From a virus (taxonomy: Duplodnaviria; Heunggongvirae; Uroviricota; Caudoviricetes): 4,517 nt of DNA. Below are positions 2,961-4,136 of this stretch, one piece after another; the stretch's first letter is position 1; each line of letters opens with the position of its first letter. Both the position numbers and the translations under genes were made by a program. The notes beneath the pieces were generated by a model. The model was not told where the DNA came from. It did not search any database and worked only from the letters and a program-made list of their open reading frames with translations. The DNA lies in the IMG/VR virus record IMGVR_UViG_2663763286_000021; one strand, written 5' to 3'.

Positions 2961-3541
2961 TGGCATTCAGAATGAGTGAACAACCACGGACCATAAAAAT
3001 TTATAATCTGCTGGCCGGAACTAATGAATTTATTGGTGAAGGTGACGCATATATTCCGCCTCATACAGGTCTGCCAGCAAACAGTACCGATATTGCACCA
3101 CCAGATATTCCTGCTGGCTTTGTGGCTGTTTTCAACAGTGATGAGGCATCGTGGCATCTCGTTGAAGACCATCGGGGTAAAACGGTTTATGACGTAGCGT
3201 CAGGGGACGCGTTATTTATTTCTGAACTCGGTCCGTTACCGGAAAATGTTACCTGGTTATCGCCGGAAGGGGAGTTTCAGAAGTGGAACGGCACAGCCTG
3301 GGTGAAAGATGCAGAAGCAGAAAAACTGTTCCGGATCCGGGAGGCGGAAGAAACAAAAAACAGCCTGATGCAGGTAGCCAGTGAGCATATTGCGCCACTT
3401 CAGGATGCTGTAGATCTGGAGATCGCAACGGAGGAAGAAAACTCGTTGCTGGAAGCCTGGAAGAAGTATCGGGTGTTGCTGAACCGTGTTGATACATCAA
3501 CTGCACCTGATATTGAGTGGCCTGTAATACCAGAAGTTTAA
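2960..3541 (+). CDS. tfa: Tail fiber assembly protein (lambda Tfa-like chaperone)
   Basis: A 193-aa ORF whose translation [94 protein letters not shown]...[25 protein letters not shown] matches lambda Tfa as I recall it. Its ATG (2960-2962) overlaps the stf stop (2958-2960) as TAATG. A possible Shine-Dalgarno GAGG sits at 2948-2951. Confidence 0.92.
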
Positions 3542-3546
3542 AATAA

Positions 3547-3572
3547 AAGCCCGCTTAAAATATCGCGGGCTT
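3547..3572. terminator. Putative intrinsic terminator hairpin between convergent genes
   Basis: A perfect 8-bp stem, AAGCCCGC (3547-3554) pairing with GCGGGCTT (3565-3572), around a 10-nt loop. It starts 6 nt after the tfa stop. For minus-strand transcription it is followed by a T-rich tract (complement of aaataaa at 3541-3546); the plus-strand downstream tract is A/T-rich but not a clean U-run. Confidence 0.5.
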
Positions 3573-3660
3573 CGAAATATAAATGTATTTTCAGAGGCTA
3601 GAGCTTAGGATATCTCAGCGGCAATTAACTTATGAGGGATAGCTAAATACCAGAAGATAA

Positions 3661-4136
3661 TTAGTTTTTACTATTTATCTTTGTTTGTGGTTCTCCTTCA
3701 GCAAGCTCAGCGCCAGTGACAGGATTGATGTCTTCATGGGATTTCAACCTTGTTGCCATAGCTTTTATCATAGCTTCTTGCTTGGTCGAAAGATTTATCG
3801 AGGCCTTCCCATCCCCACCGTCAACCGCTGGAACTGGATCGGAAACATAGTCAAAGTTTTCATCACTGTTCCAACTACCTCTGACGTCTTCACCTTCTGA
3901 CATGTTGTAATATACGTTTTTGTATTTCTCAATTGGTGGTAATTTCCCTGGTGGAAAGGTGTTACGAATTGAATGTAATGCTTTTTCAAATGAAAGCATG
4001 TGTGCTGCTTCCCTGGTCATTAAAAATGCCAGAGTGTCTTTTACTCCAGGATCATCAGTAACATTAATGAGACGTTCGTAAATGATCTTTGCCCGAGCTT
4101 CAGCTGCAATATTTGAACGAAGATCGGCCGTGACTT
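3661..4136 (-). pseudogene. Manganese (non-haem, di-Mn) catalase family gene, C-terminal fragment; 5' portion missing, apparently displaced by the adjacent IS
   Basis: The minus-strand frame is open from the stop at 3661-3663 up to 4161 and continues past 4136 into IS sequence. Its translation ...KVTADLRSNIAAEARAKIIYERLINVTDDPGVKDTLAFLMTREAAHMLSFEKALHSIRNTFPPGKLPP...NMSEGEDVRGSWNSDENFDYVSDPVPAVDGGDGKASINL... matches my recollection of the conserved C-terminal region of Mn catalases (pattern AD.R.N...E.EAR....Y..T.D.GV.D.L.FL..RE..H...F.KA, as in Lactobacillus plantarum Mn catalase). Full-length family members are roughly 270-300 aa, whereas at most about 158 catalase-derived codons remain here. 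The only in-frame ATG (4018-4020) has no Shine-Dalgarno upstream. This segment is visibly AT-richer than the tail-fiber genes. Confidence 0.6.

Follow-up and report, generated by a model that had tools for sequence, protein, structure and literature searches.

The katN remnant beside the tail fibre genes

Here we describe a fragment of katN, the gene for a di-manganese, non-haem catalase in Escherichia coli, in the IMG/VR record IMGVR_UViG_2663763286_000021 (4,517 nucleotides; "the window" below is this whole stretch). The window is the reverse complement of an entire 4517-bp draft contig, JXWD01000109.1 (GCA_000948825.1), which, like most short-read contigs, terminates within a repeated insertion sequence (IS). 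The fragment, on the minus strand at 3661-4136, is the 3' 476 bases of katN, running from the second base of codon 139 through codons 140-296 to the end of the stop codon. It is almost certainly a pseudogene fragment, made recently when the IS split the gene. The features of the window are the following.

39-2960, plus strand: side tail fibre gene (lambda-type stf, most of the gene; from the list of open reading frames, ORFs)
2960-3541, plus strand: tfa, tail fibre assembly gene, 193 amino acids (Pfam Caudo_TAP, E 1.1e-44)
3546-3573, minus strand: hairpin with a 9-bp stem and a 10-nt loop, like an intrinsic terminator of the katN operon (UUUUAUUUUAAA follows and runs into the tfa stop codon)
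3661-4136, minus strand: katN remnant (stop codon at 3661-3663, codons 140-296 at 3664-4134, two nucleotides of codon 139 at 4135-4136)
3661-4020, minus strand: longest ORF with a start codon, 119 amino acids from KatN Met178 (no Shine-Dalgarno sequence; sole metal ligand His184)
4134-4136, strandless: CTT target site, duplicated at the far side of the IS
4137-4517, plus strand: IS629/IS1203-type member of the IS3 family, left end (its terminal repeat TGAACCGCCCCGG begins at 4137)
4191-4517, plus strand: orfA of the IS (Pfam HTH_Tnp_1, E 1.4e-12)
4472-4517: first 46 positions of the ALIL frameshift pseudoknot (Rfam, 49.2 bits), its 3' end cut by the window end

The minus-strand frame running from 4134 to 3661 is open for 157 codons and then closed by a stop. 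Its translation matches the Pfam family Mn_catalase (PF05067) with E 4e-29 and 102 bits (cut-off 27), and is related to the solved manganese catalases of Anabaena (4R42 and 6J42, E 5.6e-19) and Lactobacillus plantarum (1JKU, E 1e-10). The match spans only positions 140-261 of the 284 in the profile, which is the C-terminal part and not the complete catalytic domain (about 1-261) that is covered by the intact 296-residue homologue (positions 1-261, E 5.4e-87). The remnant protein agrees at 100% with WP_000488336.1 over residues 140-296 and departs from KatN of strain EDL933 (Z1921) at 2 of 157 residues (I207L and P241S). At the DNA level, 3541-4136 is 100% identical to the intact genes of 17 complete genomes. 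The remnant is a fragment of a manganese catalase family member, not a functional member.

An earlier interpretation made from the letters and their ORFs (the sequence-only reading) had proposed the C-terminal remnant of a di-manganese catalase, incomplete, on the opposite strand and convergent to tfa, and had recommended a homology search for manganese catalases. The Pfam match, the structural relatives and the intact 296-residue homologues bear out this identification, and an intact short gene of 120-160 residues, raised as the alternative, is rejected because every full-length homologue has 296 residues. Homology to the intact gene ceases where the IS begins, and the proposed end at 4136 proved exact: in a base-by-base comparison, the window agrees with an intact copy as far as 4136, and position 4137 is the first of the IS inverted repeat TGAACCGCCCCGG. 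The turn to AT-richer composition past the tail fibre genes is also there, the GC content being about 0.48-0.51 in tfa, 0.40-0.43 over 3451-4200 and higher again in the IS.

Insertion into katN and the state of the remnant

The complete insertion is visible in locus L011, on a 5.2-Mb contig (GCA_046575645.1) with 1 mismatch to the 4517 bases of the window. In L011 the IS is 1310 bp long, at the window equivalent of 4137-5446, and is flanked by CTT on both sides, a 3-bp target duplication. Past the IS, katN codons 1-139 are intact, the 5' half of the gene resuming with 0 mismatches in 430 bases. The marks of an IS of this type are present, including terminal inverted repeats, orfA with HTH_Tnp_1, and the ALIL pseudoknot, with orfB seen in the full 1310-bp copies of L011 and L009; another copy of the same IS is likewise flanked by a 3-bp duplication (GTA/GTA). 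Strain 2014C-3011 has 20 places with 100% identity to the IS end in the window, 15 of them chromosomal and 5 on plasmids, and the IS is 96% identical to the copy annotated as IS1203 in strain ERL04-3476. Insertion of this 1310-bp IS3-family element into katN codon 139, with duplication of CTT, almost certainly placed the N-terminal half off the contig of the window and left the remnant found here.

The N-terminal fragments expected from target duplications of 2, 3, 4 and 5 bp, and from the IS1203 variant of ERL04-3476, were predicted and then sought in a protein collection. The prediction for 3 bp, with 139 KatN residues followed by 78 residues from the IS right end, exists in the collection as an exact 217-residue sequence and a full ORF. 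The 4-bp, 5-bp and IS1203-variant fragments are absent from the collection, and the 139-residue sequence predicted for 2 bp occurs in it solely as "partial" proteins of the Prokaryotic Genome Annotation Pipeline (PGAP) that end at contig edges. The 217-residue protein is encoded on L011 and on L021, a 1.9-kb contig of the draft assembly GCA_002460315.1, in which L016 is a window-like remnant contig. The missing N-terminal half, which the sequence-only reading had suggested seeking beyond the IS right end, is thus present both in the genome that differs from the window by one base and on a second contig of GCA_002460315.1. The chimeric ORF of 217 residues (L011 8136-8789) joins KatN 1-139 to 78 residues translated in antisense from the IS right end. 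It shares sequence with the 3' end of the transposase gene orfB, which lies on the opposite strand, and gene callers label it a Mn_catalase protein.

The same break point occurs in 8 assemblies, one of which is E. coli O177:NM str. 2010C-4558. The nearest complete genome is 2014C-3011, with 99.8% identity over 1-4136 and an intact katN. A 44-mer across the katN/IS junction at 4136/4137 has 0 matches in the GTDB species-representative genomes, where E. coli has one representative, and the junction as in the window is found in no complete RefSeq E. coli genome. Two complete genomes covering at least 80% of 3700-4517 were considered as junction carriers and rejected, as they hold a different IS1203 insertion, 74 bp further into katN. 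Since katN is intact in 2014C-3011 and identical copies of the IS end are present there, the insertion is recent and specific to a clone.

It could be suggested that the insertion in the source strain was followed by an IS-mediated deletion or rearrangement, that took away the N-terminal half of katN and possibly the yciGFE-like genes upstream of it too. IS629-type elements are known to mediate deletions and are plentiful in this lineage (15-40 places per genome), and the source contig stops within the IS, so that sequence past it is invisible. However, in the genome with the 1/4517 difference the insertion is clean, flanked by a 3-bp duplication and followed by the entire operon, the draft GCA_002460315.1 contains both katN halves on two contigs, and the break point is identical in 8 assemblies, making a subsequent loss very unlikely. 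With a simple insertion preferred, we infer from these relatives that the N-terminal half is kept in the exact source strain.

The state of the remnant can be judged from its metal ligands and its expression signals. Glu12 and His45 of the remnant (KatN Glu151 and His184) align with Glu148 and His181 of 1JKU, whose active-site residues include His69 and His181 (PMC11796326). Only these two of the five ligands of a di-manganese site are kept, while Glu35, Glu65 and His68 lie in the missing 139 residues, and with them the first ExxH motif (Glu65, His68). A protein without these three residues would be unable to form the four-helix di-manganese site.

With regard to expression, the first in-frame ATG is at 4020, and the 20 nt preceding it (AAGACACTCTGGCATTTTTA) lack a GGAG-like motif; the 119-residue ORF starting there has been deposited as EYZ02130.1, "Mn-containing catalase", from E. 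coli O177:NM str. 2010C-4558. Another in-frame ATG lies at 3999 (Met185), with AGGGAAG 8 nt upstream; it is the start of the 112-residue protein chosen by gene callers in most other contigs looked up. The sequence-only reading had held that the only ATG lacks a Shine-Dalgarno sequence, which is correct for the ATG at 4020, but this ATG is not the only one. Upstream of the remnant, the frame enters the IS for 9 codons and then meets a TAG at 4162-4164, which blocks translational read-in. The operon promoter is about 3 kb away, past the IS, transcription of the IS transposase points away from the remnant, and a promoter scan of 3400-4300 returned 0 promoter-like sites. The IS would separate the remnant from the operon promoter, and the direction of the transposase gene would offer no transcription into it. 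The loss of ligands, the lack of a start before Met178, the missing Shine-Dalgarno sequence and the TAG together mark a pseudogene fragment, which has probably lost both catalase activity and expression, in keeping with the earlier suggestion that it is non-functional.

Some points weigh against so firm a verdict. The contig of the window ends at IS position 381, leaving the far side of the IS out of view in its own assembly. The three glutamate ligands (1JKU Glu35, Glu66 and Glu148) are presumed from the 1JKU and Thermus thermophilus structures. In addition, antisense read-through across the IS may allow a start at Met185, which has the weak AGGGAAG upstream.

That weak motif, 8 nt before the ATG at 3999, also bears on whether the remnant is still of use as a C-terminal peptide of 112-157 residues, for instance as a secretion signal or as a partner of other ferritin-like proteins. 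The frame is undamaged and identical to that of an intact allele, and secretion of KatN through a type VI secretion system (T6SS) was reported (PMC5363993). However, the undamaged frame is explained by the recency of the insertion, there being 0 DNA differences from intact alleles; the scan for promoter-like sites was empty, and the peptide would miss the ligands of three of the four bundle helices. A retained use is hardly credible, and the remnant is better regarded as a pseudogene fragment.

The intact operon and its prophage setting

Segment 3541-4136 (596 bases) was used as query against 5426 complete E. coli genomes. It is present in 382 genomes (7%), each covering at least 80% of the query, with at least 99% identity in 371 of them. 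All 30 matches listed have a "manganese catalase family protein" annotated beside the tail fibre assembly gene, and in every related genome listed the annotation of tfa is "tail fiber assembly protein". Intact copies in related prophages, which the sequence-only reading had proposed to look for, were found, for example in strains 55989, 2014C-3011 and EDL933. In these three the gene has 891 nt, encodes 296 residues and stands last in a cluster of four minus-strand genes, which encode in order a 60-residue KGG-repeat general stress protein, two DUF892 proteins (YciF/YciE-type, ferritin-like) and the manganese catalase, all on one strand. This yciGFE-katN gene order is found in L001, L002, L008 and L011, and the window holds only the 3' half of the last gene. 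Since katN is last in the operon, the yciGFE-like genes upstream need not be affected by its interruption.

The cluster corresponds in E. coli to the yciGFE-katN operon of Salmonella, and the gene, the operon and their prophage location are already published. In EDL933, Z1921 was named KatN, and z1921-z1924 were described as an operon on the cryptic prophage CP-933X (Wan et al. 2017, PMC5363993). For the intact protein of enterohaemorrhagic E. coli (EHEC), catalase activity that depends on Mn and resists haem-catalase inhibitors, removal of H2O2 and T6SS-dependent secretion were reported, with activation of the gene by RpoS and OxyR, repression by H-NS, and about 84% identity of the protein to Salmonella KatN (PMC5363993).

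In 55989 the cluster has tfa on one side and, on the other, a ydfJ gene whose annotation records a missing N-terminus; in EDL933 and 2014C-3011 it lies upstream of ompT. We infer from the annotation that the truncated ydfJ of 55989 marks the prophage end. Between the tfa and katN stop codons is a 119-bp spacer, within the noncoding intergenic region 3541-3660. The 3546-3573 hairpin in this region folds as RNA at -16 kcal/mol (z -3.25), a value reached by 1 of 200 shuffled sequences. The sole match in a consensus terminator scan was a chance-level site within katN (4029-4049), the scanner having missed the hairpin because of its loop limit of 8 nt, while the structure is visible by folding. It is plausible that the hairpin is the intrinsic terminator of the katN operon, tail-to-tail with tfa. 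Based on 55989 and this hairpin, the cluster was taken to have the location of a moron or lambda b-region gene, between the tail-fibre genes and the attachment site and with a terminator of its own.

Carriage by viable phages is another matter: none of 50,697 phage records contains a close copy of the cluster. The only matches among them at 80% coverage or more are two short unannotated records (1.6 and 2.2 kb) with 84% identity, and a tblastn search gave an 84.4% match to a short record from a Salmonella host. In free lambdoid phages, homology to the window ends at 3522-3526, just within the end of tfa. These results count against the cluster being phage cargo, and together with the chromosomal location of the homologous yciGFE-katN operon in Salmonella (PMC5363993) they would suit a cluster that belongs to the host chromosome, or forms an islet of its own, and is only a neighbour of the prophage. 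However, all 382 matching genomes cover at least 80% of a query that includes the 119-bp spacer to the tfa stop, with tfa annotated at the match in all 30 rows listed. Moreover, the chromosomal contexts differ (beside the truncated ydfJ in 55989, upstream of ompT in EDL933 and 2014C-3011), and in 55989 the cluster is enclosed by tfa and the ydfJ that lacks its N-terminus. Host DNA or an islet is therefore improbable. We conclude that the cluster, seen only in prophages, is probably prophage-linked cargo of lambda-like E. coli prophages, in a position like that of the lambda b region. The moron or cargo position assigned to the gene in the sequence-only reading is upheld in this refined form, as the last gene of a four-gene operon and no lone moron.

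Several further observations concern the surrounding prophage. In 2014C-3011, the 3' part of tfa (L001 5828-5959, window 3368-3499) is repeated in direct orientation at L001 9650-9781, about 3.7 kb downstream and with 88% identity. In both 2014C-3011 and EDL933, the genes katN-yciE-yciF-yciG and a gene for an S-adenosylmethionine-dependent methyltransferase are bracketed by tfa and a tfa remnant. The bracketing tfa repeats hint that the cargo block arose or moved via recombination between tail-fibre-assembly genes. The 2014C-3011 prophage carrying the intact katN is degraded (L001 310-2284), as its portal gene contains an internal stop, is truncated and abuts a tape-measure fragment, so that the prophage is cryptic in this strain.

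Window 3303-3501 on the plus strand, entirely inside the 3' half of the tfa coding sequence, matches RF02111 "IS009" of Rfam, a family of candidate small RNAs in E. coli, with 227.9 bits against a gathering score of 117 (E 6e-57); the family may model conserved tfa or tfa-remnant sequence and nothing more. The N-terminal third of stf (window 39-1300, plus strand) is a long repeat region rich in Ala, Ser and Thr, with a GC content of about 0.60-0.63 and a strong AT skew. It is mostly in this repeat region and in central stf that complete genomes depart from the window, giving mosaic BLAST matches with 95% identity and coverage gaps.

Other lesions in the operon and comparison with known systems

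Further lesions were found by searching for truncated proteins, a biased sample that gives no rate. Strains ERL04-3476 and ERL05-1306 have an IS1203 insertion at katN nt 342/343 (L003 5512-6821), and a 114-residue fragment matching this insertion is encoded on 52 contigs. In L010 (8679-9939), a different IS3-family element of about 1.26 kb lies near katN nt 495, while L005, L006, L012 and L019 show between them two 1-bp indels, a 10-bp insertion, a nonsense change and a 2-nt gap in katN. A second gene of the operon is broken in the lineage with the present katN allele: an IS66-family element of the ISEc8 type (tnpA, tnpB and transposase gene; L011 4624-7574, L021 1-623) interrupts the yciF-like DUF892 gene. 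The four-gene operon of this lineage thus contains two IS insertions, one of the IS629 type in katN and ISEc8 in the yciF-like gene.

These two insertions, together with at least six further independent katN lesions elsewhere, form the basis for the view that katN and its yciGFE-katN-like operon undergo recurrent, possibly selected, inactivation in some non-O157 Shiga toxin-producing E. coli (STEC) and related lineages. We regard this as rather unlikely. If it were true, the prophage catalase would be dispensable or costly in those hosts, or katN would be a hot spot for IS629/IS1203.

The split allele itself matters little apart from correct annotation: it should be labelled a katN pseudogene split by an IS629/IS1203-type element, and not a short catalase gene (compare EYZ02130.1). 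Strains with this allele should be without the prophage-borne manganese catalase, an enzyme linked to EHEC survival of the host oxidative burst. The allele is a natural knockout and provides a simple IS-typing marker for the clone in at least 8 assemblies.

Compared with known IS629/IS1203 insertions in STEC, nothing is unusual in this copy, which shares with them the 1310-bp length, the TGAACCGCCCCGG ends, the 3-bp target duplication, orfA/orfB and the frameshift pseudoknot. Among solved di-manganese catalases, those of Anabaena (KatB, 4R42/6J42), L. plantarum (1JKU) and T. thermophilus (2V8U) can be aligned with residues 1-240 of the full-length E. coli protein (E 4e-47 to 1e-15) and share with it both ExxH motifs and the Glu148/His181 equivalents. 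They have no counterpart of its C-terminal tail of about 55 residues, and the window copy is without the first 139 residues. The RpoS-dependent yciGFE-katN operon of Salmonella enterica has the same architecture, with about 84% protein identity, but is chromosomal, while the E. coli copy adjoins prophage tail-fibre genes and occurs in 7% of complete genomes. The closest known system is KatN of EDL933, where J-lom-stf-tfa is likewise followed by a convergent katN-yciE-yciF-yciG-like operon; there katN is intact, while here it is split at codon 139, and the window keeps residues 140-296 only.
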